DNA of 64,000 bases from a virus (IMGVR_UViG_3300043548_000582:1-64000), one strand, 5' to 3'; numbered from the stretch's first letter, positions 542 through 63,286 are shown. Notes: a model not told the origin generated them from the letters alone. A program made the numbers and translations.

Positions 542-889
542 TTACATTTCAGTATTTGTCAACATATTCCATTCTCTCTTTGAATAAAAGTCAGGAACCT
601 GATGCTCGATTTTATCTGATGCCTGTTGTTTTTTGTTTTTCTTCACGTAATCAATTTTACGCTTTTTAACCTTTGGTAGTACATGCTCGAAAAACCTATA
701 TGTGTCTTCGTCTGAATTGAAGATATCATGATATGTGTTTGTCGTGGCGTTGATATAATCAACATAGGCTCCATTGCTGTAAAACGAAAAATATCGATTT
801 ACCATATAAGGAGAAAATTCATCAAGAGCCGATGCATCTATTTCGGGGGACGGCTTTTCGAAAAGCAAGTGGTTTATAGCGCTGAACAT
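542..889 (-). CDS. Clamp loader small subunit (gp62-like)
   Basis: FSPYMVNRYFS...YRFFEHVLPKVKKRKIDYVKK resembles the gp62 Y.PY..NR.LS...F....PK.KR pattern; 115 aa. Confidence 0.65.
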   Translation of the reverse strand: MFSAINHLLFEKPSPEIDASALDEFSPYMVNRYFSFYSNGAYVDYINATTNTYHDIFNSDEDTYRFFEHVLPKVKKRKIDYVKKNKKQQASDKIEHQVPDFYSKREWNMLTNTEM

Positions 890-1701
890 TGTGTAGTATT
901 AGACTCTACCAAGAATTCTGAACTTTGCAAGATCAATCGGCCATTCGCAAGATCGAAAATGTGATTTTTACATCTTGCCATTTCCGATTTCAAATCATCA
1001 ATGTTCAAGTTTACATCTCTTGTGTTATCTATCCCGCCTTTGCAACTGATTAAAAATTCAAATTTCGAAGATGGTATTATAGTAACATCCCTAGTATTAA
1101 AATAATAATTTAAATAGCTCTCATCATTTACAGCCGGTTCGTAATTTTTTGATTTGTTGATCTCCATCAACTCATTCAATTCTGACAACATGTTTAGAAC
1201 CTTTTCATAACGACCACCAAAAAATGCACCATAACAATAAGTTAAATGTTCTTCTGATCCGCCTAAACAGCAAGATGAAATTGGATTTCTATCGAATGGT
1301 TTTTTATATACATCTGGATTATCGGGATCGAATGCCATGTATGTCGAATTTCCGAAATGTTCTCCAGCTACGATATTGCCGCCGATGAACCAATCCCCAA
1401 ACTCCTTATTTATGTTCGTATCTGCATCAAAATAATAAAGATAATCAACGTCGATATTATCTTTATTGTCTAGTATATTATGAAATTTCGAATTAGTTCC
1501 TTCCAACCAGCTATTGTGTTTAGTCTCAAAATATTTGTAATTTATATAGTCTGGTAAGCATTCAGAAGGATCAGAATCTGAAAATATAAAAAACTGTAGG
1601 TAGAAATTTCCCTTATAATACTTGTAAAACTTCTTTATAAATCTTATAGCTAAAACTATATAGGCGTTTGTCCCTATGACATAAATTCCAAGTTTTTTCA
1701 T
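874..1701 (-). CDS. Glycosyltransferase family 6 (ABO/alpha-Gal transferase family)
   Basis: YLYYFDAD (DxD), YCYGAFFGG and NDESYLNYYF are GT6 hallmark motifs. Confidence 0.85.
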   Translation of the reverse strand: MKKLGIYVIGTNAYIVLAIRFIKKFYKYYKGNFYLQFFIFSDSDPSECLPDYINYKYFETKHNSWLEGTNSKFHNILDNKDNIDVDYLYYFDADTNINKEFGDWFIGGNIVAGEHFGNSTYMAFDPDNPDVYKKPFDRNPISSCCLGGSEEHLTYCYGAFFGGRYEKVLNMLSELNELMEINKSKNYEPAVNDESYLNYYFNTRDVTIIPSSKFEFLISCKGGIDNTRDVNLNIDDLKSEMARCKNHIFDLANGRLILQSSEFLVESNTTQCSAL

Positions 1702-1717
1702 TTCAATGGTTGTAACT

Positions 1718-2476
1718 TTAAGTTAGGATTCTCAGTTTTATAAATTCATCTCTATGTATGTCACGGCTATACTCACCATTCATCCAATATTCTGGAACTA
1801 TTATTTTATTTTTGTTAGTTCCTAAAAAACTACCCCACCACGAAAATGAACTATTGCTACACACTATATTTTTATATTTACTCAATAAAATTAAATCATC
1901 TAACGCCGGTCTGGATCGATGTAAATTAAATTTATAGCCTTTAAATTCGTTAGAAATATACTCCGGCGAATCTGAGAAGATGTCTATATTATATCCATCA
2001 AATATTTCAAAACATTTGTTGAAATATTTTGTATTACATATTTTATATGCATTTTCTATTGTCAGGTAGTCACCCCTCCTTATATGAAAGGCTACCCTAT
2101 CAGAATTCATAGAATCTATGTCGGAAGGTGTGTATAGTAAATTTTTAAAATCATCGGCATAATTTTGAAAATATTTCAAAGATTGAAAATATCCATTTAA
2201 ATGTATATCTTTATCTTTTTCAGGGTCTGGAATCTTAACATATTTATAAGCATTATGCTCTGTAAATTCGCATTCTTTTGATAATGGAATTTCATAGTTG
2301 AAGTTTTTAAATATTGTTCTTGAATATGGATCGGATGCAGATTCACCATCATATGGAAAATTTTCAGTATTAATTTTTAAATCTAAGTTATAATCTCTGC
2401 AATATGCATATGCGGCAGCAATTTGAAACAATTGATTGCCCAATCTGCCGCGTAATTTTATATAACACTTATTCAT
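1718..2476 (-). CDS. Glycosyltransferase family 11 (alpha-1,2-fucosyltransferase-like)
   Basis: GRLGNQLFQ, GYFQS, HIRRGDY, NSSFSWWG. Confidence 0.9.
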   Translation of the reverse strand: MNKCYIKLRGRLGNQLFQIAAAYAYCRDYNLDLKINTENFPYDGESASDPYSRTIFKNFNYEIPLSKECEFTEHNAYKYVKIPDPEKDKDIHLNGYFQSLKYFQNYADDFKNLLYTPSDIDSMNSDRVAFHIRRGDYLTIENAYKICNTKYFNKCFEIFDGYNIDIFSDSPEYISNEFKGYKFNLHRSRPALDDLILLSKYKNIVCSNSSFSWWGSFLGTNKNKIIVPEYWMNGEYSRDIHRDEFIKLRILT

Positions 2477-2480
2477 AATA

Positions 2481-3182
2481 TTAATATTTCAATCTTGCAC
2501 CGTGGAATGGATATTCATCATCAAACAAATATCCATTCTGATCTAATGCCATCCATATTTCATTTTGCAATAACAGCACATTTTTAGTTTTACATATAAG
2601 GGAAAATATAGATTGATCATGTCTATGATCGATGAAATCAGGGTGATTTTGAATAATTGACGGACTATCATCTATCAGATGATAGTCCGAAGCCAACTTA
2701 ATCCATGTATTTATTATATCTACAGTATTGGGAGTTTTTTTAATGATGAAAGAGGTCGCGGCTACTTGACCAGTGTTTAAGAACCTTTCAGCATTTAATT
2801 GAACCACTAAATCCATTTTACAATACTGACATTCTAAATGAGGCGTTTGAAACGCCAACATGTCTACCTCGCGCAACAATTCTTTATATTCATTAAATCT
2901 ACGAATGCCTTTTGGATTAATAATGCATCCAATATCGCAATATACTAATATATCCCCGGCCTCCATATTATCCAAACATTTCCCGACTATTGTTGGTTTC
3001 CACGACCAATATCCAAACCCTCTAGAATTGGTATTGCAATAATTTAACATATCGGATGATAAATCTTCCTCTCCGAATAGTTTTATATGATCGAAAAATT
3101 TTGAATTTACGGCTTCATCATATATTCTAGTTTTAGTTTTAGAATATTTCGAATCTGCAAATGAAGAAAACCAGACTTTCAT
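2481..3182 (-). CDS. Putative GT-A fold glycosyltransferase
   Basis: RGFGYWSWKP, YCDIG and DHRHDQSIFSL motifs; lies inside the GT operon. Confidence 0.65.
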   Translation of the reverse strand: MKVWFSSFADSKYSKTKTRIYDEAVNSKFFDHIKLFGEEDLSSDMLNYCNTNSRGFGYWSWKPTIVGKCLDNMEAGDILVYCDIGCIINPKGIRRFNEYKELLREVDMLAFQTPHLECQYCKMDLVVQLNAERFLNTGQVAATSFIIKKTPNTVDIINTWIKLASDYHLIDDSPSIIQNHPDFIDHRHDQSIFSLICKTKNVLLLQNEIWMALDQNGYLFDDEYPFHGARLKY

Positions 3183-3709
3183 TTTTTAGCCTCCACATTC
3201 AAACTCATAAGCATTCCATTATCTTTATCTAAATGCGGTAGATAACATTGACTGAAATCGTCTATATTAGAATGCTCTGTATTTCTCCAATCATATCTTT
3301 GAACATCCGAAAACCCGACATCAATGAGATCATTTTTCAATGTTTCGAAATCCCATCCACAATAATGATAATTTTGTGGATAAGTTTGACCGCCCCATAA
3401 AAATCCTCTAAGTATTTTGAGATCTTTATATTTTAAATAGTGATTGCATACCGATTCGATATCAGGAACTGCCAATCTCAAAATTCCACCATCGGATAAT
3501 ACATCATACCAATTTTTCAAAATATTTATATATTCGTATCTATTAAAATGTTCCAACACATGAGAACAATATATCAATTCAATATTTTTATCTTTAAAAC
3601 TATATAAGTCTTTGATATCCTTAACTACATCGACTCCTTCACTTGGACGGATATCTACATTTATGAATCCCTTTAAAATTTTATCACCACACCCAATATG
3701 TAATTTCAT
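3179..3709 (-). CDS. Class I SAM-dependent methyltransferase (likely acts on a glycan)
   Basis: LHIGCG...NVDI, SHVLEHF, L..GG.LRLAVPD. Confidence 0.85.
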   Translation of the reverse strand: MKLHIGCGDKILKGFINVDIRPSEGVDVVKDIKDLYSFKDKNIELIYCSHVLEHFNRYEYINILKNWYDVLSDGGILRLAVPDIESVCNHYLKYKDLKILRGFLWGGQTYPQNYHYCGWDFETLKNDLIDVGFSDVQRYDWRNTEHSNIDDFSQCYLPHLDKDNGMLMSLNVEAKK

Positions 3710-4500
3710 ATATATTTATTATATATTAGCCAATCTTCCACTGTCAAGTACTTATTTGCTATCTCAAAATTTTGCTTTACATAAGATAGTTTAGAATTAT
3801 ATAACTCCAAGGTTAGACTATTCAAAATACTTTCTAATTCTTCGAAAGTATTAAATATTAAAAGTCCTTCAGGGTTAAAGAAATGTGATATATTTTCACA
3901 CCCCCAGTAAATGGGAATGGTACCAGTTTTAAAACAGTCTATTATTTTTTCAGTAAAATACCAAGGAGATTTAGTATTTTCTATAACTATAGAAAACATA
4001 TAATCTTTAAGCGCATCTACTTTATGGTCAACTGGATTATAATAATATCCAAATTTATCAAATCCATTAAAATTATTAGCGATATAATGCCTCAACCTAT
4101 GCCCCTTTAATTGCATTTTCCCAGATGCTATCAAATTACATATTTTATTTTTTGGATATATATATTGATCATTTGGGGAAATCCAACATCCGCCCCACGG
4201 TACAACTTTACTATTGGGTAATTTTAAAATATCTGCATCATGTGTCCATATTTTAGAAAAATTGCTATAGTGTTTCTCTAACCATTCATAATATGGTGAA
4301 TGGTATTCTCTGGGCTCGATCAACCATGCAATATTATTAGGATTTTTTTCACGATATTCAGTTAAATTGCAATCAGTATATACCACAATATCATCATCTG
4401 ATATTGTGGATGTTCTATCCCATTCTAATAATAGTGAATTATTGTATGGTGTAGAGAATTCTTGATGACTGAATATAGAATCTTTAATTTTTAGTTTCAT
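3706..4500 (-). CDS. Glycosyltransferase family 10 (alpha-1,3-fucosyltransferase-like)
   Basis: GT10 signature YMFSIVIEN...YFTEKIIDCF..GTIPIYWG. Start placed at 4500 (MKLKIK) because of an ATGA overlap with the extended upstream frame. Confidence 0.85.
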   Translation of the reverse strand: MKLKIKDSIFSHQEFSTPYNNSLLLEWDRTSTISDDDIVVYTDCNLTEYREKNPNNIAWLIEPREYHSPYYEWLEKHYSNFSKIWTHDADILKLPNSKVVPWGGCWISPNDQYIYPKNKICNLIASGKMQLKGHRLRHYIANNFNGFDKFGYYYNPVDHKVDALKDYMFSIVIENTKSPWYFTEKIIDCFKTGTIPIYWGCENISHFFNPEGLLIFNTFEELESILNSLTLELYNSKLSYVKQNFEIANKYLTVEDWLIYNKYI

Positions 4501-4565
4501 ATGAAATTCCATGTTTTAACTTCATTTAATAAAGCATTTGTATACATTGATAATATTCTATTATA

Positions 4566-5228
4566 TTATTTAATATTATCATTTATATATGGATTATTAT
4601 CATAGGCGGTTTCTGTTCTGATATGATTCAAATGGTATAATGGTCCAGAAACTCGCGCAATCTTGTATGCTAATTTGGAATATCTTGTATAAATTTCATT
4701 ATCTTCATAACCAAGCCCTTTGAAGTTTTCATTAGCTCCTCCCCCATTTATAAAAACATCCCTTTTGAAAAATACAACTCCTCCAACAGAATCGGAATTG
4801 AATAAAGTACACTCATTCAATGGTATTTCTTCTATTTTAGAAGTATATTCATGATATTTTTTAGGAACATCATAAAATCTACCATCATAAGGGTATACTA
4901 TATCATACTCTCCAGAATTTATAAGATTAAATGCTTTTATCAATTGAGCAGGATTCATAAAAATATCAGCATCATAATGTGCTATAATGGGAGCATTCGA
5001 GTGTTTTACACCAATATTCAAACCTTTTTGCCTATTGAAGAACTCATCAACCTGATTGAATATATAATCACATTCGTATCTATCCTTTAACTTTGGAGAA
5101 GTGTCTGATTCAGTTAAAATAATATTACATTCAATATTATTTTTTAGAAATTCCATAATAATATCTAAATTATTAATTCTATCAACACTATCTACCTTCA
5201 AAGATATTATAATATCTAACTTATTCAT
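4566..5228 (-). CDS. GT2/GT7C-type (galactosyltransferase-like) glycosyltransferase; stop may be premature
   Basis: FNRQKGLNIG, HYDAD, GGVVFF, GGANENFKGLGYEDNE, LYHLNH. After TAA at 4566-4568 the frame stays open for 22 more codons to TGA at 4497-4499. Confidence 0.8.
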   Translation of the reverse strand: MNKLDIIISLKVDSVDRINNLDIIMEFLKNNIECNIILTESDTSPKLKDRYECDYIFNQVDEFFNRQKGLNIGVKHSNAPIIAHYDADIFMNPAQLIKAFNLINSGEYDIVYPYDGRFYDVPKKYHEYTSKIEEIPLNECTLFNSDSVGGVVFFKRDVFINGGGANENFKGLGYEDNEIYTRYSKLAYKIARVSGPLYHLNHIRTETAYDNNPYINDNIK

Positions 5229-6037
5229 TTTTTTAAAAATTTTAATAGTTCTAACACTTCTGATTGTGATGTATCTGGAACTCCATTAGGTCCATAAGGT
5301 GATATGTTGTGTTTTTTCTCAAACAACTGTATCGATTTTTTTATATTTGAACTCCACTCTTCCATTTTTTTGGAAGTTTTTATAGTTGAAGATTCTTCTG
5401 AACAGGCTTGTTCAGTGATATATTCATATGAATTAGCTATATCAGCCCACCACCAGTAAGGAGTTGAATATTTATTCAATGATAATGTATAACTATGCGA
5501 AACATGATCAAATGCATTTTTGAAATTTTCATCAATCAATCCACACATTTCAAGAGCTTGTTTTGTATAGTAACAAAACGCTCCGACACAGTGCATATTC
5601 AAAGCTATCGAAACATCATCCGCGTAATTTACAATAAGTCTAGGAGTTGGGATTCCTTTAGAAACGCCATTTTTATTCGCGGGGCCATGATAGCCAAACA
5701 TCATATGTTGAATACCTGATATTTTAGATGCTTTTATGTATGTATGAAAAATACTATCATCTAATATCAACATATCGTCCTCTATTATAAATATATGATC
5801 ACACCCTTCATCTAAAAGATGCCTCATAGCTATATTTTTAGATTTGGCAACGCCTAAATTAACCTCATTATTTACAAGATAATAATTGTAACCTTCTAAG
5901 TTATCAATTCGATCTCCATCATTCACAATAATGAGATCGACGAAATTGCAATATGCGATACTATTTAATAAGTTTTTGAGAAATTCGGGTCTGTTACATG
6001 TAACAATCCCAACCCCTATTCGTTCTTCACTTGCCAT
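5225..6037 (-). CDS. Glycosyltransferase family 2
   Basis: VGIVTCNRPEFL, IIVNDG, NLGVAKSKN, IFIIEDD, GLIDENF. Confidence 0.85.
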   Translation of the reverse strand: MASEERIGVGIVTCNRPEFLKNLLNSIAYCNFVDLIIVNDGDRIDNLEGYNYYLVNNEVNLGVAKSKNIAMRHLLDEGCDHIFIIEDDMLILDDSIFHTYIKASKISGIQHMMFGYHGPANKNGVSKGIPTPRLIVNYADDVSIALNMHCVGAFCYYTKQALEMCGLIDENFKNAFDHVSHSYTLSLNKYSTPYWWWADIANSYEYITEQACSEESSTIKTSKKMEEWSSNIKKSIQLFEKKHNISPYGPNGVPDTSQSEVLELLKFLKK

Positions 6038-6761
6038 TTTTTTTAATTTGTTTCATTAATTTTCCAACAGCAGCATCCATCTTCGTAGCCTTTTGTTGGT
6101 CTTTGAGAAGAGATTCTATCAACTGTAAATTTTCTTCGCTGAAGAAATTTGAATCGGGTTCGATCAGTGCGCCAGATTCATCAATGAACTGTGATATATA
6201 GAATAGCCTGTCATCAACTGTCTTACCTTCAACTGGAATGATCGCAGGGCAATCATCCTTTGGATAAAATATATCAGTCTCCAAGTTTTCTGAGTAATGC
6301 TCATATAGTTGAGCGAACACGCCATCAACTTCCTTTAGGTGTTCAAGATTTACATCACGGATACCATCATCTACAACTTTAATTTCATCATCGAATGGCA
6401 ACCAAAAAATAATATCAAGGTGCTTCATACTTTCTCTAACCAGCGATATACTTGCAGCAGTAACTTCATCTGAAATTTGATCATACGAGTTTGCAACAAG
6501 CGTGTACGCCAAATTATCCCAAGGACATCTATCATAAATGATGTTGGTATCTTTCGGGATACTTTCCTGCGTTTTTAGCATCCAATCCAAAATTAATAAC
6601 TGGGTTTCTTCATTTGTATTTGAAGAATGTTCCAAATTATTCTCTTCGAGAATATCTCGATATGTTTTGGCAGGGGTTTCAAACATTGGCCATTTTTGCA
6701 TGAAAGCTCTTACTAATGTTGACTTCCCTGAATTTTGGGTACCGCTAATTGCAATTCTCAT
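6027..6761 (-). CDS. P-loop nucleotide kinase-like ATPase (AAA_28/NadR-TMK-like)
   Basis: Walker A RIAISGTQNSGKSTL; IIYDRCPWDNLAY. Confidence 0.75.
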   Translation of the reverse strand: MRIAISGTQNSGKSTLVRAFMQKWPMFETPAKTYRDILEENNLEHSSNTNEETQLLILDWMLKTQESIPKDTNIIYDRCPWDNLAYTLVANSYDQISDEVTAASISLVRESMKHLDIIFWLPFDDEIKVVDDGIRDVNLEHLKEVDGVFAQLYEHYSENLETDIFYPKDDCPAIIPVEGKTVDDRLFYISQFIDESGALIEPDSNFFSEENLQLIESLLKDQQKATKMDAAVGKLMKQIKKNGK

Positions 6762-6780: not shown

Positions 6781-7446
6781 TTATTCAGATTTCAAGAACA
6801 TTTCCCAATCTTCTAGAAAATCTACGAAAACATATCCATTTTTCGGTTTTGTTGGTGGTTTCATCAGCTTCAGTTTCTTTCCTTGTGTTGATACCCAAGC
6901 CTTTAAATCGGGATCTGATGGCTTGAATTTCGAAAGATCACACTCATCGAGAAGTCTATCCGCCTTCCACATATTAAGCTCTCTATGGCACGTAATCTGG
7001 TTATCCCATGTATTTGCGTTGCCGGGATGTTTTGATTTCGGATATATATGATCCACTGTCATTGTGCCAACGCTCAACTTCAATCCTGAATATCCGCATG
7101 TATAGTTATCCCGTTTGAATATGTTGTATTTCGTCGGGAAAATCACTCTTTTATGGGGTATTCCTTCATAGTTTGAACATACCACAACAGATGGCACTCT
7201 TACATCTCCACGGATCGTTTTTATTTTTTTGTCATAGCTACGCACGGGCAGCTTCATCCATTCTTGAGCGCTTTTAACGACGTTGAAATACGATATTTCG
7301 TCCAGCTTGTTGCCGTTTTCATCGAATTCATAAATCAAGTCCAATGGATATACAACTTCGGAAAAAATATTCCCGAATGTTTTCTTTTCATCACAAGTTC
7401 CGACAGGGAAATAGTGCTTGTTTAAGACTAAAATGCCTTTGCTCAT
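6781..7446 (-). CDS. HNH endonuclease (McrA-like)
   Basis: VLN..Y.P N-terminus, RVPSVV, IFKRDNYTCGYSG, TVDHIYPKS, WDNQITC..N..KADR. Confidence 0.85.
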   Translation of the reverse strand: MSKGILVLNKHYFPVGTCDEKKTFGNIFSEVVYPLDLIYEFDENGNKLDEISYFNVVKSAQEWMKLPVRSYDKKIKTIRGDVRVPSVVVCSNYEGIPHKRVIFPTKYNIFKRDNYTCGYSGLKLSVGTMTVDHIYPKSKHPGNANTWDNQITCHRELNMWKADRLLDECDLSKFKPSDPDLKAWVSTQGKKLKLMKPPTKPKNGYVFVDFLEDWEMFLKSE

Positions 7447-7452
7447 TGCATG

Positions 7453-7550: not shown

Positions 7551-8294
7551 ATGATGAGCGTAAAACGTGCTACGCGAAAGCGTAAAGAAGTGCCGGATCT
7601 CGAAAGAGAATTTATGGAGTCATATAAAAAGAATTTCGATTTAAACAATTTGAAATTGAAAAAACACTTCCCGTTTACAGACAACCAAACGAGATGTTAT
7701 TATACGATAAATGATAACAATACCAACATGGTATTTATTGATGGACTAGCTGGAAGCAATAAAACATACCTGTCTGTATATGCAGCCCTTGAGCATTTGA
7801 AAGAGGGTAAATGTGAACAGATCATTTATATCAGATCCGTCGTCGAAAGCTCTTCAAGAAGCTTGGGAGCGCTTCCCGGTGAACTTGATGAAAAGTTCAG
7901 TCCTTACACATTACCTCTAATGGACAAGCTATCAGAGATAGTAGATGAAGGAAGCACTCACGCATTGTTCAATCAAAAATATATCAAAGCGATTCCCGTG
8001 AACTTTGTACGAGGATTGACATTTCACGATTCATTTGTGATCATTGATGAAGCCCAGAACCTAACTAGAGGTGAATTGACCACAATCTTAACCAGATTCG
8101 GGAGAAACAGCAAATACATTATATGCGGTGATGCCAATCAGAGTGACATCAAAGACTCTGGTTTCTCAAAAGTGTTTCAATTATTCAATACCGATCACTC
8201 ATATAAAAACAACATACACTGCGTCAAATTCGACGTTGACGATGTTGTAAGAAGCCCAATACTCAAGCATATTACTCAAATTTTGGGCGTTTGA
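7551..8294 (+). CDS. phoH: PhoH-like ATPase
   Basis: GLAGSNKT, LGALPGELDEKFSPY, RGLTF, IIDEAQN, LTRFG, GDANQSD, DVVRS. Confidence 0.92.
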   Translation: MMSVKRATRKRKEVPDLEREFMESYKKNFDLNNLKLKKHFPFTDNQTRCYYTINDNNTNMVFIDGLAGSNKTYLSVYAALEHLKEGKCEQIIYIRSVVESSSRSLGALPGELDEKFSPYTLPLMDKLSEIVDEGSTHALFNQKYIKAIPVNFVRGLTFHDSFVIIDEAQNLTRGELTTILTRFGRNSKYIICGDANQSDIKDSGFSKVFQLFNTDHSYKNNIHCVKFDVDDVVRSPILKHITQILGV

Positions 8295-23271: not shown

Positions 23272-23302
23272 AAAAGGGCGGGGTCAACCCCGCCCTTTTT
23301 TT
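23271..23302. terminator. Bidirectional intrinsic terminator
   Basis: AAAAA-GGGCGGGG-tcaa-CCCCGCCC-TTTTTTT between convergent genes. Confidence 0.9.
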
Positions 23303-25079: not shown

Positions 25080-25094
25080 GGATGTATTTAACCG

Positions 25095-25122: not shown

Positions 25123-25127
25123 CCCGT

Positions 25128-39792: not shown

Positions 39793-39821
39793 TAGTTATA
39801 TTTATGCTTAAAAATTGCTTT

Positions 39822-43741: not shown

Positions 43742-43749
43742 TTAAATAT

Positions 43750-44391
43750 TTAAGGCGGTAGCGTAGTTGTTGTCGTAACCGGACCCGGTGTGGTTGTTGA
43801 TGTTGGACCCGGTGTGGTTGTTGGGGACGGTGTGGTTGTGGATGCTGGTATCGGGGGTGTTGGTGGTGGGGTTGTCGTATTTAAGCTTTCAGCTTCTACT
43901 AAGAACCCTCCTTTATCCACAGAAAATATAAACTGTTTGTTGTTATCAGATACTTGCATAATATTTGCATATATATGCTTCATATCCCCGATACTTTCAA
44001 AATAATCGGATGTTATTATTTTGAAAGGTTGCACTATTGAACATTTGTCACCATTTATATATTCTATATTGACTTCGGCAGATAATAATTTATATCTGGA
44101 TGTTTCTGATGGATAATAGAGGTGGGATACTTCATTTGAAAGTATTGAACTTATTTTATTATAAAGTATTTCTGGAATTATACTGTCAACTCTGTAGTCT
44201 TTACTGAATGAATTTTCAAAAATAGCAGACTCTCCATCACCCCAATTGATTCTTAGATACATGGGAATTTCAGACTCTGATATCCCACTCAATACAAAGG
44301 TCACAGAAGTCAAATCATACAGTTTGACTTCTGGTAATGTTGAAGATAGTGCGGTTGCTGAACTAGCAAATCCAATTGTGTAAGTATTCAT
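43750..44391 (-). CDS. PKD-like virion protein with a mucin-like C-terminal tail
   Basis: INWGDG...SHLY; tail TTTPPPTPPIPASTTTPSPTTTPGPTSTTTPGPVTTTTTLPP. Confidence 0.65.
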   Translation of the reverse strand: MNTYTIGFASSATALSSTLPEVKLYDLTSVTFVLSGISESEIPMYLRINWGDGESAIFENSFSKDYRVDSIIPEILYNKISSILSNEVSHLYYPSETSRYKLLSAEVNIEYINGDKCSIVQPFKIITSDYFESIGDMKHIYANIMQVSDNNKQFIFSVDKGGFLVEAESLNTTTPPPTPPIPASTTTPSPTTTPGPTSTTTPGPVTTTTTLPP

Positions 44392-47096: not shown

Positions 47097-47129
47097 TGAT
47101 AATATTTACTTGTCAGATGCCGACTTTGA

Positions 47130-51063: not shown

Positions 51064-51077
51064 TAAGAAATATTTAA

Positions 51078-51563
51078 TCAGGAGATCGTGTAACCCGTTG
51101 CGGCGAGTTCTGATTTTATACTCAATCCGTAAACATCCAACGAAGGCACATCAATTTTAAGTTCGATGTTGTATTGATTATTATCTTCATCTGCAACAAC
51201 CACAACATCTTGCAGTGTTATTCTGGGTTCCATCAAAGGAAGCTTCGTTTCAATGTCATCTTGTATCAATTCCGTTGTGAAATCGTCGATTGGCTCGAAG
51301 AGATATTGTCTTAAATCGACACCGTAAGTCGGATTGAGTAGTTTTTCTCCGGGTGAAGTGAGTAATGCATTTACAATGCTATTTTTAACAGCTTCTATGT
51401 CAAAAAGAGCTTGTACATCTTTCAATACTTCATTTCGATTGAGTTGACTGTTGTAACTATAGGATGGAGATAAATCCAATGCTATATCTTTGTATAAAAA
51501 CCCGCTTTCAAGCGCTTTTTTAGATACTGCTGGTGCTTCTAGTGATTTTATCTTAATAGCCAT
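51078..51563 (-). CDS. gp25: Baseplate wedge subunit gp25
   Basis: AVKNSIVNALLTSPGEKLLNPTYGVDLRQYLFEP, EPRI. Confidence 0.92.
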   Translation of the reverse strand: MAIKIKSLEAPAVSKKALESGFLYKDIALDLSPSYSYNSQLNRNEVLKDVQALFDIEAVKNSIVNALLTSPGEKLLNPTYGVDLRQYLFEPIDDFTTELIQDDIETKLPLMEPRITLQDVVVVADEDNNQYNIELKIDVPSLDVYGLSIKSELAATGYTIS

Positions 51564-51585
51564 CGTTAATATTTAACAGATGGAC

Positions 51586-56372: not shown

Positions 56373-57283
56373 TCCACAACATTCTCAAGGGCGAGGAGAC
56401 AGGCAAATGCATTGATCTCCTTGTCCATGACAATCGAACTTTTAAACAGGCTATCTGCTATCTGCAAGATAGCCTGTTTCTTTTGAATCTCATCAAAATC
56501 TACATTGTAGATGTAGTTCAATAGACCACTAAGCAACTGCTCGTAATCATTATCAAACAGAGCATCATTTTCAATGAGATACTTTCTAGTTTGTAATGAT
56601 GATTTGTTTTGTATGCCAGCCCAAATGTAAGAATATAGATCTTCTGAGCTTGTTTTTACACCAATGTTCAGGGTTCCTGACACTGAATGCTTTTGAAGCT
56701 CATTGATGCACTTTCTCAAGTCTGGAAAGAAACCCTTAACTAATCTTACAACCTCTTTATTCTGCTCTGGGGGAACAACAACACCTTCATTGTTCAGAAT
56801 ATACAGACATCTCTTTACAGCACCTTTAAGAGTCGGCTTGACATCGACGCTTTGACATCTGGATTGCAATGCATCCATGATTTTGTGTCGATAATTGGCT
56901 GTTAGAATGAATCTCGCAACCGCAGAGTATTCTTCGATCAAGTTTCGCAGGCATTTCTGTGATTCTTTCGAAAGACCATCCGCTTCATCGAGAACAACAA
57001 CTTTAATTCCCCCGTTAAAGCTTTTGGTCCTTATGAAACCCGTTACTTTAGTTCGAATGTTATCAATACCAGTCTCATCTGAAGCGTTTATATACAAATA
57101 ATCACACTTCAAGATGTCTTGGACCAAGATTCTTGAAATTGTCGTTTTCCCTGTGCCTGCTGCCCCTGTAAAGAGGAAATGTGGTATTTCATCAGTGAAT
57201 GACTCGAAGAATTCTCTGGTATTATCAGAGATGCACATGTCATTCAATGTTTGCGGTCTGTATTTTTCAATCCATAAATTCAT
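56369..57283 (-). CDS. gp44: Clamp loader large subunit gp44 (RFC-like AAA+)
   Basis: LWIEKYRP, GAAGTGKTT, INASDE, LDEADGL, QSRC, FPDLRK. Confidence 0.95.
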   Translation of the reverse strand: MNLWIEKYRPQTLNDMCISDNTREFFESFTDEIPHFLFTGAAGTGKTTISRILVQDILKCDYLYINASDETGIDNIRTKVTGFIRTKSFNGGIKVVVLDEADGLSKESQKCLRNLIEEYSAVARFILTANYRHKIMDALQSRCQSVDVKPTLKGAVKRCLYILNNEGVVVPPEQNKEVVRLVKGFFPDLRKCINELQKHSVSGTLNIGVKTSSEDLYSYIWAGIQNKSSLQTRKYLIENDALFDNDYEQLLSGLLNYIYNVDFDEIQKKQAILQIADSLFKSSIVMDKEINAFACLLALENVVD

Positions 57284-58029
57284 AGTTCTTGCAATCCTAG
57301 TTTTTTGTCGGATCTATTCTCGATAGTGCGCACCAGATTGGCACAATCTAACAAACTATCGAATGATCCTACGTCGAACCAGAGGATATCATGAAGACAG
57401 CATACGTCAACCCCTTCTTTCTCATTCAATGCCTTGATCAGATCAACGATTTCAAGCTCGCCTCTCTTAGAGGGTTTGAGATGCTTTGCAATCGAGACTG
57501 CTTCTTTTGTGAAGACATAAAGACCAACAACAGCATCATTTCCAATGTATGTTTGGGGCTTTTCGATGATATCAATCAGTTCATTCTCTTCATTCAGTGT
57601 TGCAACGCCGTAATCATTTGGATTTTTAACTTTATAAGTAAAAATGGTGTTGGCAGGCGCATCTAGATTTTGATCTCCGATGAAAATATTATCCCCCAAT
57701 ATCAATGCAAGACGATCAGCATCATTTGCCCAATCCCCAGCTATCGTAAAGGCTTCAGGTAATCCATTTGGCTTATCTTGTATCTTGTATTGAAAGTTCA
57801 TGCCATATTTGGCACCATTTCCAAGATAATTGTAATACATCACCAGTTGTTCCTTGTCAGCACATATAATCAAAACATCGGTGTATCCCATCTTTTGCAA
57901 CGTTCCCAAACTGTATGAAATTACAGGTTTGTTGTATACTGGCAGCAATTGTTTTGATATACCGAACTGTGTTAGTGGATAGAGTCTAGTTGCTCGTCCT
58001 CCCGCTAAACATATCGCCTTTTTAATCAT
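57280..58029 (-). CDS. rmlA: Glucose-1-phosphate thymidylyltransferase
   Basis: LAGGRATRLYPLT, SKQLLPVYNKP, Q.KPNGLPEAF, LILGDNIF, EKP, SKRGELEI. Confidence 0.92.
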   Translation of the reverse strand: MIKKAICLAGGRATRLYPLTQFGISKQLLPVYNKPVISYSLGTLQKMGYTDVLIICADKEQLVMYYNYLGNGAKYGMNFQYKIQDKPNGLPEAFTIAGDWANDADRLALILGDNIFIGDQNLDAPANTIFTYKVKNPNDYGVATLNEENELIDIIEKPQTYIGNDAVVGLYVFTKEAVSIAKHLKPSKRGELEIVDLIKALNEKEGVDVCCLHDILWFDVGSFDSLLDCANLVRTIENRSDKKLGLQEL

Positions 58030-58921
58030 TTAATACCTCCTCTAAGATTTCTTGTTCGTCTCGCATTTTCATAATGGTGGATGCTTTTGTGTTATCCAAA
58101 ACACAATTGCTTCGACCAGCGATTATTGGAATTTCCGTGATATTTACGAATTCCCATTCCGGGTTGTTCCTGCGGAACTTTTCCATTATGTTTACAACTT
58201 CCTTGGTTGTTAATGGATTTGGATTCACTACATTGTATATCCTATGTGGGCAACCCATATTATATGATTCATGTATAAACAAGTCATGTATAAGTGTGTT
58301 TGTGAATTCGCAAAGATCAGGAATGTAAGTCTTGCTGTTTTTATAATCGATCAAAGTATTATACTTTTTGATTTTTGATAGATAGCTGCGAGCATCATGC
58401 AATCCGCTGATTGGCATCCTAATTCGGAGGATGCTGATCGGCAAGTGTTTTGAAAGAACCTCAAATGCGTGTTTGGTTTTGCTGTAGAATGAACTTTCAT
58501 CATTATACAATCCGAAGTTTGGAGCGTCGTCTTCGGTGAATTCTTTTTCGTAACCTGTGTATATACATCCGCTACCGATATGTATGTATCGTTTGCCCAA
58601 GTCTGTAGTCAATTTGGCACACATCAATGGAGATGTCACATTCAGCCGCCAACACTCTTCTTTTTTGCTTTCAGCTTCGTCGATGTTTGGTCTACCGGTG
58701 AATCCACTGCAATTGACGACAACATCTGGTTCAAAATTGAAATTTAATTCATACCAGAATGTTTTCGGATCGTGGTAATTGAGGGTTTTAGAGTCTAGGA
58801 CTTTGACAGTGTGACCCTCTGACATCAGATGGTTGCCAATATGATTTCCGATGTATCCGTTTCCTAGAATTAAAATCTTACGCTTGATCGTATTCTTCTT
58901 CAATAAATTCTTTGATGTCAT
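58022..58921 (-). CDS. NDP-4-keto-6-deoxyglucose 3,5-epimerase/4-reductase-like SDR (RmlD/NRS-ER type)
   Basis: LGNGYIG, GFTGRPNID.AE, SGCIY, F.E.D.PNF, SFYSKTK, LRIRMP, RSNCVLD. Confidence 0.8.
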   Translation of the reverse strand: MTSKNLLKKNTIKRKILILGNGYIGNHIGNHLMSEGHTVKVLDSKTLNYHDPKTFWYELNFNFEPDVVVNCSGFTGRPNIDEAESKKEECWRLNVTSPLMCAKLTTDLGKRYIHIGSGCIYTGYEKEFTEDDAPNFGLYNDESSFYSKTKHAFEVLSKHLPISILRIRMPISGLHDARSYLSKIKKYNTLIDYKNSKTYIPDLCEFTNTLIHDLFIHESYNMGCPHRIYNVVNPNPLTTKEVVNIMEKFRRNNPEWEFVNITEIPIIAGRSNCVLDNTKASTIMKMRDEQEILEEVLND

Positions 58922-59099
58922 GTATGTTTACATTATCATTCGTTTGGAGAAAGTCAACCATCGCAGATGCCAATTCATTGCCCATACTTGAAAGCTCCTC
59001 ATCTTCAGTGCTGTCCAAGAATATTTGCAGTTCTTCAATAGCATCTAGGATCTTGTCCTCTTTTTGATTGATAGTTTTCAACAGTTTGATTTTATTCAT
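58878..59099 (-). CDS. Hypothetical acidic protein
   Basis: 73-aa ORF at the head of the rml-gp44 operon. Confidence 0.55.
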   Translation of the reverse strand: MNKIKLLKTINQKEDKILDAIEELQIFLDSTEDEELSSMGNELASAMVDFLQTNDNVNIHDIKEFIEEEYDQA

Positions 59100-59139
59100 A
59101 ATTTGCAGTATTTACTTTGAGGGGTCACTAAATATAGTC

Positions 59140-60429
59140 ATGGGTTTAAAAATTTCAAGTCTGCCGGTAAATTCTCTGCCTTATTCAGGTTCAGAAAAAC
59201 TACCTTTAGTTCAATCAGGTGTTACAAAAGCAGGCACTCTCAGTTCTTTTGTAAATTATTTGTCGGGAGCTTTACCTTCTGGAGGCAGCAATGTGTCGTC
59301 TTTAACTGGTAATTGGCAAAGTACATATACCACATTTAGTTCAAACAGCGCTAATTATGCTGTTAAAAATGCTGATAATAATTTTAACACAAATCAAACA
59401 TTTACTGACGATATCACTATAGGTACAGGCACATATTTGAAAGAAATACCTGCCCCGTCTACAATCGATGCATATTCACTTATATTAGGTTATAATGCAG
59501 GTGCTAATGACGGTTCATCTACTACATATGATGATAATGTATTTATAGGGTATCAGAGTGGTAATGATAGCGGAAGTATTTTTGGAGCAACTTCTAAAAA
59601 TATAGGCATTGGTTACGGATCTTTGGATTCTGCTGGCTCTGGTACTTACGGATCCGCATCTAATAATATTGCCTTGGGAGAAAGTTCTGGTATTAATATT
59701 GGTTCCAATAACGTGTCTACCCCTAACACAACTAACAATATAATTTCTATTGGATCGAATGCTGGTAGTAATATAGGTTCTGGTAATGATAGTTCAAACG
59801 GAAATGCTGTAAATGTAATAGCGATAGGTAATACTGCTGGAACAGGTGTAGGATCAGCTACAAGCTATTCGGGTGATGCAGTAGATGTAATAGCAATTGG
59901 TTCAGAAGCTGGTATCGATGCAGGTAGCGGCGGTGTTGATAATAGTGGTAACATAAATTATTCAGTTTTCTTAGGTGTACAAGCTGGTCATAGCGTAGGT
60001 AAAGGGGATATTCTCGCTGGTAATGCTAGTGATATTATTGCTATAGGTAGACAATCTGGTTATGAAAGTAATATAGGCGCAACCACAAGTGATAATATCT
60101 ATATCGGTAGAGAGTCTGGTTATCGGAACGGATATAGTACTAATTCTCAGAATAACATTTTCATCGGATTATCTTCCGGCTATAATAAACAAGGCAGTAG
60201 AAATACATTCATCGGAGACCTAACTAATACAACACCAACAGACTCTGTAAATCTCAGTGGTTGTATAGCTATCGGTTATGGCGCTCAGCCAACAGCGAGA
60301 AATACCATCGCTCTTGGTTCTGCTTCAACTCCTTTGAGCGTTGTTCCCGGTGCATCAACGTATCAACAATTATCTGGATTGAAAGTGATGATAAACGGTA
60401 CTTATTACACGATACCGCTATTCTCTTGA
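59140..60429 (+). CDS. Fibre/spike protein with Gly-rich N.xIG..[AS]G repeats (trimeric autotransporter-head-like)
   Basis: Repeated NVFIGYQSG/NIGIGYGS/VIAIG; KISSLP N-terminal module; TAAATA-N5-ATG. Confidence 0.7.
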   Translation: MGLKISSLPVNSLPYSGSEKLPLVQSGVTKAGTLSSFVNYLSGALPSGGSNVSSLTGNWQSTYTTFSSNSANYAVKNADNNFNTNQTFTDDITIGTGTYLKEIPAPSTIDAYSLILGYNAGANDGSSTTYDDNVFIGYQSGNDSGSIFGATSKNIGIGYGSLDSAGSGTYGSASNNIALGESSGINIGSNNVSTPNTTNNIISIGSNAGSNIGSGNDSSNGNAVNVIAIGNTAGTGVGSATSYSGDAVDVIAIGSEAGIDAGSGGVDNSGNINYSVFLGVQAGHSVGKGDILAGNASDIIAIGRQSGYESNIGATTSDNIYIGRESGYRNGYSTNSQNNIFIGLSSGYNKQGSRNTFIGDLTNTTPTDSVNLSGCIAIGYGAQPTARNTIALGSASTPLSVVPGASTYQQLSGLKVMINGTYYTIPLFS

Positions 60430-60463
60430 TTTTTCATTTCTTTAAAATTTAATAAATACATAT

Positions 60464-60823
60464 ATGAGTATACTTAACAGCACCCCAACAGTCCAGACTG
60501 TATTAACAGATGAGCAAATTTTAAATAGCTTAGCAGCTGAAATTAAAAGATTTTCAAAAAGATCTTATGATTCTGTATTAGAAATACAAAACAAAGGTAT
60601 AAATCTTGTATGGAAACGTGGTAGATTCACACCGCAGCAAATTATAGATGCTCTTGGTCCAGATGCCGTTAAAATATTTCAAATGCATGCTATTTTAACA
60701 GATGCAATCAAACAAATAGCTGCCATTGATGGTATAGAAGCTCCAGTAGCATTACCAACAAATGCTTTTGAGATTGTAGATGGTGCTATTGTTGTATCTG
60801 AAGATCCATATATTACTCAATAA
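60464..60823 (+). CDS. Hypothetical late protein, fibre-associated
   Basis: TAAATA-N5-ATG; lies between two fibre genes. Confidence 0.6.
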   Translation: MSILNSTPTVQTVLTDEQILNSLAAEIKRFSKRSYDSVLEIQNKGINLVWKRGRFTPQQIIDALGPDAVKIFQMHAILTDAIKQIAAIDGIEAPVALPTNAFEIVDGAIVVSEDPYITQ

Positions 60824-60835
60824 CTTATAAATTTT

Positions 60836-63286
60836 ATGACAGGTATCAAAATTATAGACTTACCAAGCAGCACACTGCCTTATACGGGAACAGAACGTAT
60901 TCCTATAACACAAGATGGCGAAACACGAAATGGTACATTAAATTCATTCGTTAATTATATATCAGCTTTTACACCACCTCAACCTCCACTAACACAAGAT
61001 GGAATAGAGTCCGCAATCACTGATAACTCATCATTTCTAACTAATTTAGGCGCTGTTAGTTCTAACGGATCTGGTATTGTAGATAGTTCCAATTTTCGTG
61101 AAACTCTGCTATTAAATGATACAGCAATACCGGATTCACTTAATTGGCAACCGAATTGTTTTAATAAACTTGTATTATCAGGCGCACCTATACATGTATT
61201 GATTGCAGGTGACTCATTATCTACCCAACTAAGAATGCCTCCAAACGCAGCTTCCGCAGGTATAATAGGCGCTTCAAGATTAGCAGGATCTGTTAATGTC
61301 AGTGATTATAACGGACAAGATGGTAGACCTAGATTTGAGGATGTATGGTTAGCTCCTTATCATGTGATTTCAGCCGGTGGTAGTGCTGTTTATCATATAG
61401 GCGGTCAAGGAGCAGTTAGCCCTGTTGCTACAAGAGCTAACACAATATCCGTAATGTATATTGCTGAAAGTGGAGCTGCTACGTTTAATTTGATGTACTC
61501 TACAAACTTGGGTACCAATTGGACGATTGTATCGAGTATTAGTGCTAACAATGGTGGATCAAGAGAAGGTAAAGTATATATCAATTCTTCTTTACCTGCA
61601 TCAAATTCACCGACGTTCGTTGCAGGCATTAGCGGTGTTACAGGTGGTAATGTTCGTATTATAGGTGTTGGACTTTACCACAATACAGGATTGGGTGTTG
61701 TAGAGCTTCGAGCATTGGCAAATCTTGGAGGTATTGATATAACAAACTTTGGCGCTGTGCCTGATTCTATATTTACCCCGCTATGGTCTCACATGTCTCC
61801 TGATCTTGTAGTAAGTCATTTTGCTGATTCGCCAGAGGATTGGAAAGACGTTAAGTTAACACTTAATAATGTGGTTACAAATGGTACTAATACTATAACA
61901 TTTGATGCATATCCACCTACAGAGTATGCAAATGGAAATGCATATAGACCTTATCCTTTGGTAGGTGACTATATAACAGGTACTAATATACCGCCTAATA
62001 CTAGAATCACAGCACATACTAAAAACTCGCAAACAGCGACAATAAGCAACTCAGCTACAGGAAGTGGCACAAACTCTGCTAATATTCGAGGAGCGTTTGT
62101 ATCATTTTACGAACGCTGTAGTAGTATTAAGAGTAAAACGGATTGGATTCAGTTTTCAATGAATCCAACAATGTCACCAGCTCTCTCTCAACACCCTCGA
62201 TGGGAAAGTGGTGTGTCTTACCCTGTAGGTACTCGCGTTACTACATATAATGCAGATGCTACTATTGCAGTAGGTAGACTTGAACGAGTTTATGTTTCTA
62301 AAGCTAACCATACATCAGATTCAACCACGCTACCTAATGTAGGGGCATCTTGGCAAACAGTATGGGATGAAGACCTGCTTGATGCAGCATCAATATCTGC
62401 GGGGACAGGAAGAGCGAGACAGCAAGCAAAAGCTCAAAGAGAGTGGGCAATTAGATCTGGCCATTCATTCATCAACGGTTTTGATATTTTTAGAGATTAC
62501 AGATCAGCGTCTAGTGCAGGGTTAATGTCACCACCTGACATGATTCATCCTAATGACGTAGGACATCCATTTAAAAATGTTATGTTTTGGTCTAAAATCC
62601 CACTTGCTCAAATGAATTTGGGCTTAATTGGGAATGTCTACTCTAAAGATGGTAATGTACCTTTAATTTACACAACACCGGCAAGTAATATTTATGCTCC
62701 CGGAGATGCAGGTTTAGTTGAAATTAGCCGTCCGCTAAGAATGTCAGGACCGGGGGCTCAAATTAATTTAGGAGACCGTAATACCCCTGTTAGTTTCAAC
62801 GCTGATGTGGCATTTTCAAACACCGGTGGAGTTTTAACTATAAGTAACTTTAATACTAGTATTGTCGCTATTGGCGGAACATCTTCTTTTCTTGGATGGC
62901 ACCCCGGTTCTAATGGTGCTGTATTAGGCGGTCGTGGATCAAATTGGTGGAATCTTGGAGGAGCTGGAGTCAGACTTGAATATACACCTACGACAACAAA
63001 TTATACTATCGCTGCTACCGACTATACTGTTAATGTAACAAGTAATTCTGTAACCGTTCAATTACCACTAGCGGAAGCGCTAAATTCAAATACTAGTAAT
63101 TTCACTAATACTAGAGCAGGTGTAGAAGGTAAACTATATTGTATTAAAAATTCTGGAACAGGCACGACAGTTACATTATCAGCAAATGGTGCACAATTAA
63201 TTAATTCAACAAATACATTGTCAATATCATCAGGTCAAATGTTTAAAGTTCAATCAACAGGAACTGGTTGGATAACTGTAATGTAA
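60836..63286 (+). CDS. Virion spike with SGNH/GDSL esterase domain and CBM5/12-like insert
   Basis: IAGDSLS, DMIHPNDVGH, WESGVSYPVGTRV...YVSKANHTS...W; N-terminal module shared with 59140. Confidence 0.7.
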   Translation: MTGIKIIDLPSSTLPYTGTERIPITQDGETRNGTLNSFVNYISAFTPPQPPLTQDGIESAITDNSSFLTNLGAVSSNGSGIVDSSNFRETLLLNDTAIPDSLNWQPNCFNKLVLSGAPIHVLIAGDSLSTQLRMPPNAASAGIIGASRLAGSVNVSDYNGQDGRPRFEDVWLAPYHVISAGGSAVYHIGGQGAVSPVATRANTISVMYIAESGAATFNLMYSTNLGTNWTIVSSISANNGGSREGKVYINSSLPASNSPTFVAGISGVTGGNVRIIGVGLYHNTGLGVVELRALANLGGIDITNFGAVPDSIFTPLWSHMSPDLVVSHFADSPEDWKDVKLTLNNVVTNGTNTITFDAYPPTEYANGNAYRPYPLVGDYITGTNIPPNTRITAHTKNSQTATISNSATGSGTNSANIRGAFVSFYERCSSIKSKTDWIQFSMNPTMSPALSQHPRWESGVSYPVGTRVTTYNADATIAVGRLERVYVSKANHTSDSTTLPNVGASWQTVWDEDLLDAASISAGTGRARQQAKAQREWAIRSGHSFINGFDIFRDYRSASSAGLMSPPDMIHPNDVGHPFKNVMFWSKIPLAQMNLGLIGNVYSKDGNVPLIYTTPASNIYAPGDAGLVEISRPLRMSGPGAQINLGDRNTPVSFNADVAFSNTGGVLTISNFNTSIVAIGGTSSFLGWHPGSNGAVLGGRGSNWWNLGGAGVRLEYTPTTTNYTIAATDYTVNVTSNSVTVQLPLAEALNSNTSNFTNTRAGVEGKLYCIKNSGTGTTVTLSANGAQLINSTNTLSISSGQMFKVQSTGTGWITVM

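Follow-up and report, generated by a model that had tools for sequence, protein, structure and literature searches.

The first 64,000 nucleotides of the viral record IMGVR_UViG_3300043548_000582 (hereafter the window; the whole record, G000, is a linear IMG/VR sequence of 89,234 nt that CheckV rates as about 43% complete) combine the genes of a distant T4-like phage with an array of glycosyltransferase (GT) genes, and raise the question of what these enzymes glycosylate. The sequence-only reading of this DNA had proposed that about nine GTs, a sugar-nucleotide supply, three Thr/Pro-rich mucin-like proteins and a tripeptide, LS[AGS], form a single system for O-glycosylating the virion. The analysis described here points to a smaller unit. 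At the end of the fibre operon lies a conserved module in which an enzyme resembling the polypeptide GalNAc-transferases (ppGalNAc-Ts) may glycosylate dedicated Thr/Pro-rich proteins encoded alongside it, a reading that we hold with about as much belief as doubt. Of the earlier proposal, the pairing of one enzyme with mucin-like proteins is supported by fold, synteny and the loss of Thr runs where the enzyme is absent; the cooperation of nine GTs and the role of the tripeptide as a glycosylation sequon are not.

The enzyme at 34070 and its Thr/Pro-rich neighbours

The candidate module comprises the last four minus-strand genes of the operon, read from 36466 down to 34070. Here and below, genes were identified with Pfam (at its own cut-offs), NCBIfam, PHROGs and PDB sequences.

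35702-36466, minus: protein with an L-type (legume) lectin-like jelly-roll fold
35226-35699, minus: mini-mucin A, 157 aa, 34% Thr and 20% Pro
34909-35223, minus: mini-mucin B, 104 aa, Thr/Pro-rich, with the C-terminal Cys cap C..C.KLNF; a paralogue of mini-mucin A
34070-34897, minus: GT2 protein, GT27-like by fold (Pfam GT2, 39.6 bits, E 7e-10), a putatively soluble GT-A enzyme with a DxH motif

The 34070 protein (275 aa; homologues 258-309 aa) consists of a catalytic domain only, and its AlphaFold (AF2) model has a pLDDT of 95.3. When this model was compared with the PDB by Foldseek, the first 50 or so matches were exclusively ppGalNAc-Ts of family GT27 (E 2e-13, TMq 0.65-0.75), among them human T2, T4, T7, T10 and T12, mouse T1, fly PGANT9 and Toxoplasma T3. 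VIA, an all-against-all structure aligner that is independent of Foldseek, likewise ranked mouse GalNAc-T1 (Z 22.9, rmsd 2.9, 255 of 274 residues) and TgGalNAc-T3 (Z 22.0) above other GT-A folds, including chondroitin polymerase, RmlT, TarS and SpsA, none of which exceeded Z 18.7. Three motifs, D92-x-H94, GFGGEEGYIH196 and W214-x-H216, are invariant in an alignment of 33 homologues. Mouse GALNT1 uses Asp209, His211 and His344 (the DxH motif of GT27; PMC4202792). In the phage enzyme H196 and H216 are two candidates for the third-ligand histidine, both invariant in the 33 sequences and named without a residue-by-residue structural alignment to GT27.

In IMG/VR, 277 relatives of the enzyme were confirmed (56-82% identical to it), and a large protein collection contains 2261 homologues, all of them metagenomic (Tara included), the best 120 of which are at least 65% identical. 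Identity among relatives spans 56-91%, so that this GT is much better conserved than the accessory GTs described below. A tblastn search with the 34070 protein found no homologue in 50,697 GenBank phage records.

Mini-mucin A is laid out as a Thr run, a Cys cluster, a Pro-rich core, a further Thr run and the cap CKPCVNKLGY. The same layout, with the terminal cap generalised to C..C[N/K]xLx[F/Y], defines a capped family whose members range from 100 to 2062 aa while keeping core and cap, and among which tandem paralogues are frequent. Mini-mucin B ends 11 nt before the start of the GT gene, and a capped-family open reading frame (ORF) ends 11-14 nt before the GT start in about 52 of the 74 loci whose upstream sequence is long enough. 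Of the distinct ORFs upstream of the GT, 68% contain a 30-aa window in which Thr plus Pro make up at least 60%, compared with at most 7% of other ORFs, a background that is itself an overestimate because the set still held some of the same genes. In the complete relative G012, uncapped proteins with Thr/Pro tracts occupy the corresponding place. The surroundings of the GT are syntenic as well, with fibre genes on one side and primase and other replication genes on the opposite side; the lectin-fold gene lies directly upstream of the mini-mucins in a conserved order, and the GT is the final gene of the baseplate/fibre gene run on this strand.

Long forms of the capped family are found at L082:3790-9978, L045:6594-9983, L160:10849-16302 and other loci. 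In the marine forms, the common C-terminal core and cap are preceded by long Ala/Glu-rich coiled-coil-like stretches, PPYTT repeats and globular parts.

The sequence-only reading had counted three mucin-like genes; the third Thr/Pro-rich gene belongs to the baseplate module:

43750-44391, minus: protein that is Thr/Pro-rich over its C-terminal 43 residues only

Composition, codon use and motif conservation bear out this count: Thr uses all four codons in these genes, and the reading frame of the mini-mucins is confirmed by Cys and Pro motifs conserved in relatives. None of the 15 homologues examined shares the Thr/Pro tail of the 43750 protein, and by this comparison the tail is a recent gain in this phage.

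For the lectin-fold protein (AF2 pLDDT 82), the top Foldseek matches were legume lectins, ERGIC-53 and SraP, and VIA gave Z scores of 13.7 (rmsd 3.0, 165 residues) and 13.4. The sequence profile of this family found nothing usable among PDB sequences.

No signal peptide, transmembrane segment or hydrophobic segment was found in the GT, the mini-mucins or the lectin-fold protein; for the GT, the maximum 19-residue hydropathy is 0.96. Any glycosylation by the module would therefore take place in the cytoplasm.

Relatives that lack the GT27-like gene were located by searching with the lectin-fold family. Seven distinct loci of this kind were recovered (L135, L137, L158, L160, L166, L167 and L170), and also L184; gene order is retained in them except that, past the capped protein, the next conserved gene comes without an intervening GT. 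In the 171-kb record that holds L170 (81% complete), the GT profile has no match anywhere, compared with E values of 1e-143 or better in two complete control genomes. These loci still encode a capped protein with the PAP[VI]LPL..PF[LI] core and the Cys cap. Its core-to-cap segment, however, has a Thr fraction of 0.10-0.21 and an Asp/Glu fraction of 0.17-0.26, as opposed to a Thr fraction of 0.33-0.69 in 10 of 11 GT-bearing orthologues. Thus, where the sequence-only reading had asked whether GT-less relatives keep the mucin genes and the motif bias, the LS[AGS] bias is kept and the capped protein is kept, but the Thr run is acidic instead. Such co-variation is, at the level of gene content and composition, what an enzyme/acceptor pair predicts.

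Several observations weigh against this reading. The identity of the 34070 protein to GT27 is only about 16% (14-18% in structural alignments), GT-A enzymes all look alike, and the 34070 profile, run against PDB sequences, missed the GalNAc-Ts and matched only TarP (E 0.003) and TarS (E 0.17), both weakly. Predicted bacterial GT2+Glyco_transf_7C proteins, whose acceptors are unknown, match the 34070 fold at TM 0.83-0.95, and the chordate ppGalNAc-Ts, at TM 0.82, match no better. Because identity is this low, the profiles miss GT27 and the bacterial proteins are at least as close, the modelled likeness to a ppGalNAc-T is one of architecture only, and membership of GT27 is not established. In addition, no capped gene adjoins the GT in about 22 of the 74 loci (L071, L079 and L057 among them), and therefore either another acceptor exists or the capped gene lies elsewhere in the genome. 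One GT-bearing locus, L080, is Thr-poor in the core-to-cap segment; the co-variation of GT loss and Thr runs probably reflects one or two evolutionary events only; and Thr/Pro tracts also serve as plain flexible linkers. Finally, an 11/12 match to a sigma-70-like promoter lies inside the lectin-fold gene (36135-36106, minus), facing the mini-mucins and the GT, and may be a chance occurrence or an internal promoter driving the module outside the late programme. Promoter assignments, here and below, are consensus matches and not measurements.

The 34070 GT is nevertheless read as a protein O-glycosyltransferase paired with the mini-mucins, because of its fold, the gene order and the loss of Thr runs where the GT is absent. 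From the fold, motifs, gene order and co-variation that are observed, we infer a scheme for the transfer itself, its donor and the fate of its product. In the host cytoplasm, the enzyme would use a UDP-sugar as donor and attach its sugar, probably a HexNAc or a hexose, to the Thr runs of the mini-mucins, in parallel to the initiation of mucin glycans by polypeptide GalNAc-transferases; it may also modify the Thr/Pro tail of the 43750 protein in this phage. The product would probably be a glycosylated, brush-like accessory protein held in or on the distal tail apparatus via its Pro-rich core and Cys cap. This placement in the virion is suggested by operon position only, and nothing found here supports the complex glycans on fibres and baseplate that the sequence-only reading had envisaged. 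The remaining GTs, three core and the others accessory, may together with a rhamnose route extend the mini-mucin glycans, or they may act elsewhere.

At least 20 genes, the majority of them structural (gp6, gp25, sheath and the terminase side), have the hexamer TAAATA ending 5-6 nt ahead of their start codon, at 39109-51563 in the window and 60464-86234 in the genome. It resembles the T4 late promoter, and from such a position transcripts would begin with hardly any leader. Upstream of the replication and sugar genes, TTGACA-N17-TATAAT-like sequences stand in its place. The mini-mucin genes and the GT gene all lack a TAAATA box, and from the arrangement of the genes they are probably transcribed by read-through from upstream, which would place them in the late programme.

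The LS[AGS] tripeptide in peripheral structural proteins

The tripeptide was examined separately, in the following proteins.

36468-38012, minus: collar-domain fibre protein, LS[AGS]-rich
38024-39106, minus: Mtd_N fibre protein, LS[AGS]-rich
39109-39792, minus: gp10_C protein, LS[AGS]-rich
39822-41531, 41528-43741, 43750-44391 and 44388-47096, minus: peripheral baseplate/fibre proteins, LS[AGS]-rich
47130-49256, minus: PKD-bearing protein, LS[AGS]-rich
49249-53394, minus: inner baseplate proteins (gp6-like, gp25-like and a 602-aa protein), no LS[AGS] enrichment
59068-60429 and 60836-63286, plus: structural proteins with an LS[AGS] excess
63295-64095, minus: neck-like structural protein with an LS[AGS] excess

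The enrichment claimed for peripheral structural proteins proved real. With expectations taken from within-protein shuffles (n=1000), 12 such proteins contain 59 LS[AGS] compared with 13.4 +/- 3.6 in the shuffled sequences, a 4.4-fold excess that was reached by none of the 1000 shuffles; the remaining 100 or so proteins contain 18, where 24 are expected. Of all dipeptides in the 12, LS is the most strongly over-represented. Across 218 distinct fibre and outer-baseplate homologues of the clade, 981 LS[AGS] were counted against 198 expected (5.0x), and only the outer baseplate and fibre ORFs show the excess in two complete genomes. In the same 218 proteins the observed/expected ratios of related tripeptides are far lower: 1.2x for IS[AGS] and VS[AGS], 0.8x for FS[AGS], 1.5x for LT[AGS], 1.1x for LS[NDTV] and 1.0x for the reversed motif. 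The Bacteroidota O-glycosylation sequon D[ST][AILVMT] is not enriched in them (403 against 403.7 expected). LS[AGS] is depleted in replication proteins, gp32 for example having 0 against 8 expected, and the family of the 34070 GT itself has 1 against 12.

Simple origins for the motif were considered and rejected. It is not a general trait of T4-like fibres, as T4 has 7 against 7.8 expected and cyanomyovirus S-RIM2 18 against 18.6. An origin at the DNA level, as a repeat, restriction site or recombination site, does not fit the use of all six Leu and all six Ser codons in background proportions, and a regular structural repeat does not fit the irregular spacing and weak flanking context. Nor is LS[AGS] the sequon of the GT27-like enzyme, because the enrichment persists in relatives without that gene, at full strength (6-8 against 0.6-1.7 expected per protein). 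The proposal that it is a glycosylation sequon is not supported: the motif survives the loss of the gene, and nothing connects it to sugar. On these comparisons LS[AGS] is a real, protein-level, clade-specific feature under selection in peripheral fibre proteins, and is separate from the GT27-like enzyme.

What the motif does is finely balanced. Some sites are conserved far above their flanks, with the third residue swapping among Ala, Gly and Ser; others are gained and lost with the count per protein remaining high; and all five sites in the model of the lectin-fold protein lie in coil. It may be no sequon at all, and instead a structural or assembly signal, such as a turn element or a fibre-chaperone site, or the site of some other modification, an explanation to which we give neither the better nor the worse chance. 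The undiminished enrichment in relatives without the GT27-like gene agrees with this explanation, as do the strong preference for Ser over Thr (LT[AGS] only 1.5x), which is unlike the substrates of ppGalNAc-Ts, and the fact that no enzyme can be attributed to the motif. Yet structural elements usually interchange Ile, Leu and Val, whereas this motif is sharply defined (0.8-1.2x for its Ile, Val and Phe variants), its sites are irregularly spaced, and its depletion from replication proteins also speaks against the explanation. The conservation of sites, their Ala/Gly/Ser swapping, their turnover at constant count and their position in coil are the behaviour of modification sites, and a core GT, of GT-B type, is kept in every genome checked.

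In bacteria, fibrous or beta-rich surface proteins can be modified at many sites by soluble GTs ahead of their export or assembly, as in HMW1C/HMW1, the heptosylation of AIDA-I by TibC, and GtfA/B acting on serine-rich repeat proteins. Such hyper-glycosylation of adhesins is a possible analogy for LS[AGS], with no enzyme homology detected and a different sequon. Whatever its role, a five-fold, clade-specific and Leu/Ser-specific short linear motif is of interest in its own right.

The remaining glycosyltransferases and their possible targets

The other GT and sugar-nucleotide genes of the record are as follows.

874-1701, minus: GT6 (Pfam 35.7 bits, cut-off 25; NCBIfam Gltr_6, E 2e-18)
1718-2476, minus: GT11 (62.5 bits, above the Pfam cut-off)
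2481-3182, minus: protein earlier called 'GT-A', no library match
3179-3709, minus: methyltransferase (weak, 29 bits against a cut-off of 27)
3706-4512, minus: GT10 (32.1 bits, above the Pfam cut-off)
4566-5228, minus: Glyco_transf_7C/GT2 (40.5 bits, above the Pfam cut-off)
5225-6037, minus: GT2 (22.0 bits, under the Pfam cut-off; PHROGs phrog_2456, E 4e-22)
6027-6761, minus: AAA_28/dNK-like (P-loop) kinase, paired with the GT2 at 5225-6037
17410-18603, plus: GT-B-like (20.7 bits, under the Pfam cut-off; PHROGs phrog_7162, E 1e-24)
25095-25799, plus: GT2_5 (Glyco_tranf_2_5, 46.6 bits), upstream of a DnaB-like helicase gene
57280-58029, minus: RmlA-like glucose-1-phosphate thymidylyltransferase (E 1e-46; TIGR01207, E 4e-65, below the equivalog cut-off)
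58022-58921, minus: short-chain dehydrogenase/reductase (SDR), NRS/ER-type 3,5-epimerase/4-reductase (best PDB match 4qqr, E 6e-24)
81725-82750 of the genome, outside the window, plus: RmlB-like 4,6-dehydratase (TIGR01181, E 5e-101, below the equivalog cut-off)

Six GT genes, the 34070 gene included, pass the Pfam cut-offs and two more are supported through PHROGs GT families, so that eight of the roughly nine GTs originally claimed stand on their profiles. The ninth, the supposed GT-A at 2481-3182, is unsupported, as searches of Pfam, NCBIfam, PHROGs and PDB sequences gave no match to the protein. The methyltransferase call, although weak, is supported. The pairing of RmlA with an epimerase/reductase is likewise upheld by profile and PDB matches, and is extended by the RmlB-like gene beyond the window. 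The second-best PDB match of the SDR is the mimivirus UDP-L-rhamnose synthase 7jid (E 1e-13), and the protein is far less similar to bacterial RmlD (E 3e-6); a separate RmlC was not found in the 89-kb record. By these profile matches, RmlA, RmlB and the NRS/ER-type SDR are a three-enzyme route to nucleotide-activated L-rhamnose. Its genes are divided over two sites about 23 kb apart, and a bifunctional enzyme of the plant and giant-virus type takes the place of bacterial RmlC plus RmlD.

Comparison with two complete relatives singles out four core GTs, at 5225-6037, 17410, 25095 and 34070. The GT6, GT11, GT10 and GT7C-like genes and the methyltransferase of the 874-6037 island are accessory; GT11 occurs in one of four complete relatives, and the rhamnose genes occur in G012 but not in G004. 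The GT2 at 5225-6037 and its AAA_28/dNK-like kinase are kept as a pair in both complete relatives, at 66%/60% and 46%/37% identity. The island carries a perfect sigma-70-like promoter sequence (3747-3718, minus) and an 11/12 match (7480-7453, minus). The GT-B gene, situated between the Mre11/Rad50-like genes and the DNA polymerase gene and retained in a relative without the GT27-like gene, stands behind TTGACA-N17-TATAAT, and RmlB and the SDR are also preceded by TTGACA/TATAAT-like sequences. With four core members only, and an accessory island behind early-type promoter sequences, the GTs find no support as the single virion-directed system first proposed. An HNH endonuclease gene (6781-7446, minus) lies between PhoH (7551-8294) and the island, just after the 11/12 match, and may mark the island as mobile or recently inserted.

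If the GTs are not united in one task, some or all may serve purposes other than glycosylating the phage's own proteins. They could, the 34070 enzyme included, alter a host glycan (lipopolysaccharide (LPS), capsule or S-layer), for example to block superinfection, with the Thr/Pro-rich proteins acting as unglycosylated spacers or linkers; we regard this as rather unlikely. The sequence-only reading had itself listed action on host LPS or capsule as counting against it, and the GT island may have such a target. It is in keeping with such a role that cyanomyoviruses (P-SSM2, S-SCSM1 and S-CAM7) have GT11 homologues in their GT islands, which have been read as host cell-wall or LPS modification genes, or as DNA protection (PMC12801897). 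The GT island here is moreover accessory and sits behind sigma-70-like promoter sequences, as expected of early host-directed genes; the sugar-nucleotide genes, too, have TTGACA/TATAAT-like sequences upstream, and the rhamnose route is present in one complete relative, G012, and missing from another, G004. A host-directed role leaves unexplained, however, why the fibre operon holds a highly conserved core GT at a fixed distance, 11-14 nt, downstream of a Thr/Pro-rich gene, why the Thr runs are gone where the GT27-like gene is missing, and why the closest solved fold is a polypeptide transferase. Furthermore, the 89-kb record yielded no flippase, polymerase or membrane-anchored GT; only three of its proteins, none of them a GT, have a transmembrane-like segment.

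The alpha- and beta-glucosyltransferases of T4 glycosylate modified bases in phage DNA, and some or all of the GTs, chiefly the GT-B at 17410 and the GT2_5 at 25095, might do the same. Both of these core GTs lie among replication genes, one in the gap between the Rad50-like and DNA polymerase genes and the other before the DnaB-like helicase gene; one replication-module GT has an early-type promoter sequence; and a dNK/AAA_28 kinase-like gene is paired with the core GT2 at 5225. Diverse DNA-glycosylating GTs of phages are, in addition, cited in PMC12619734 and PMC13326640. Nonetheless, neither G000 nor any of four relatives with a completeness rating of 100% gave a match to the thymidylate-synthase/hydroxymethylase family (PF00303), whereas control genomes do match, and the T4-type hydroxymethyl-pyrimidine route is therefore missing. 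Run against the PDB, the GT-B family profile returned nothing usable and no similarity to solved DNA glucosyltransferases, and an Atlas search with the GT-B returned viral GT-1-like clusters only. T4-type DNA glucosylation is thus unlikely on the gene content, and the replication-module GTs may serve other routes of DNA modification. As an account of the GTs at large DNA modification seems highly improbable, and it cannot account for the pairing of the mini-mucins with a GT.

Known glycosylation systems and the phage clade

The proposed module resembles eukaryotic mucin-type O-glycosylation, which is regarded as eukaryotic and Golgi-based, in two respects. As in the GT27 ppGalNAc-Ts, there is a GT-A domain with a DxH motif, for which these enzymes are the best structural match (Z 22-23 over about 255 residues), and the enzyme is genetically paired with Thr/Pro-rich, mucin-like candidate acceptors. 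It differs in its roughly 16% identity, in the absence of a ricin-type lectin domain from the 275-aa protein and of a membrane anchor or stem, and in a cytoplasmic instead of a Golgi setting; a separate gene of L-type lectin fold belongs to the phage module, and Pfam places the enzyme in GT2 and not in a GT27-specific model.

To our knowledge, the glycosylation of proteins in tailed-phage particles has been demonstrated experimentally only in mycobacteriophages. There the glycans are carried on C-terminal extensions of virion proteins (Freeman et al. 2023, as cited in PMC12619734 and PMC12801897). The present phage likewise has a GT beside structural genes, and the Thr/Pro tail of the 43750 protein is comparable to these glycosylated extensions. 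Unlike the mycobacteriophages, whose hosts are Actinobacteria, it would infect a freshwater bacterium and has other GT families, and small mucin-like proteins are proposed as acceptors instead of capsid or tail-tube proteins. With giant viruses (the fibrils of Mimivirus, the chlorovirus capsid) it shares a virus-encoded sugar-nucleotide route with an NRS/ER-type rhamnose synthase and many GTs, independent of the host endoplasmic reticulum and Golgi; it differs in being a tailed phage of about 200 kb, and a GT27-like/mini-mucin pair has not been described in giant viruses. The 'LPS' islands of T4-like cyanophages (P-SSM2, S-SCSM1 and S-SCSM2R) are similar in their GT11 homologues (about 29% identity) and in that several GTs and sugar-nucleotide enzymes sit together in a variable island of an aquatic T4-like genome. 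The cyanophages are set apart by the GT27-like gene, which has no cultured homologue among the 50,697 GenBank phage records, by the failure to find psbA in the complete relatives, and by a DNA polymerase only about 30% identical. In the literature searched, a GT27-like/mini-mucin pair was not described in any phage.

A wider picture can be drawn, which we consider distinctly unlikely to hold in all its parts jointly. In it, a large uncultured aquatic clade (about 200 kb, freshwater and marine) would produce mucin-like glycoproteins of its own in the cytoplasm of the bacterium, by means of a minimal ppGalNAc-T-like enzyme, and mount them on the tail periphery together with a lectin-fold partner; the Ser of L-S-[A/G/S] on fibre proteins would be decorated independently by another core GT; and strain-variable GT6/GT11/GT10 islands, resembling the enzymes of blood-group and Lewis antigens, would diversify the glycans. 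If true, this would be a bacterial-virus counterpart of mucin-type O-glycosylation, possibly bearing on the origin of GT27. The smaller module, a compact soluble enzyme tied to its own Thr/Pro-rich acceptors in some two thousand environmental sequences, would, if it works as proposed, extend virion glycosylation to abundant aquatic T4-like phages, explain some or more of the GT load of aquatic myoviruses that has so far lacked an explanation, and supply a minimal enzyme/acceptor pair for bacterial glyco-engineering.

That the phage is T4-like, as the sequence-only reading held, is borne out by its replication and baseplate genes. The window encodes UvsW-, Mre11/Rad50-, gp43-, UvsX-, gp41-, gp32-, gp61- and gp44-like proteins and the baseplate proteins gp25, gp6 and gp10_C, as expected of a distant T4-like myovirus, and the sheath and terminase genes of the record lie outside it. 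A 601-aa ORF on the opposite strand within the replication module (23301-25106, minus) has no Pfam or PHROGs match and no homologue in two complete relatives, and no tRNA genes were found in the window. The DNA polymerase is at most 31% identical to that of any cultured phage, cyanomyoviruses included, and a megablast search with 25 kb of the window found no cultured relative. The window has a GC content of about 35%. Public runs that hold the full stretch are freshwater metagenomes, possibly including the source sample, with no RNA run among those listed. The four relatives rated 100% complete measure 202-212 kb, and three of them have terminal repeats.

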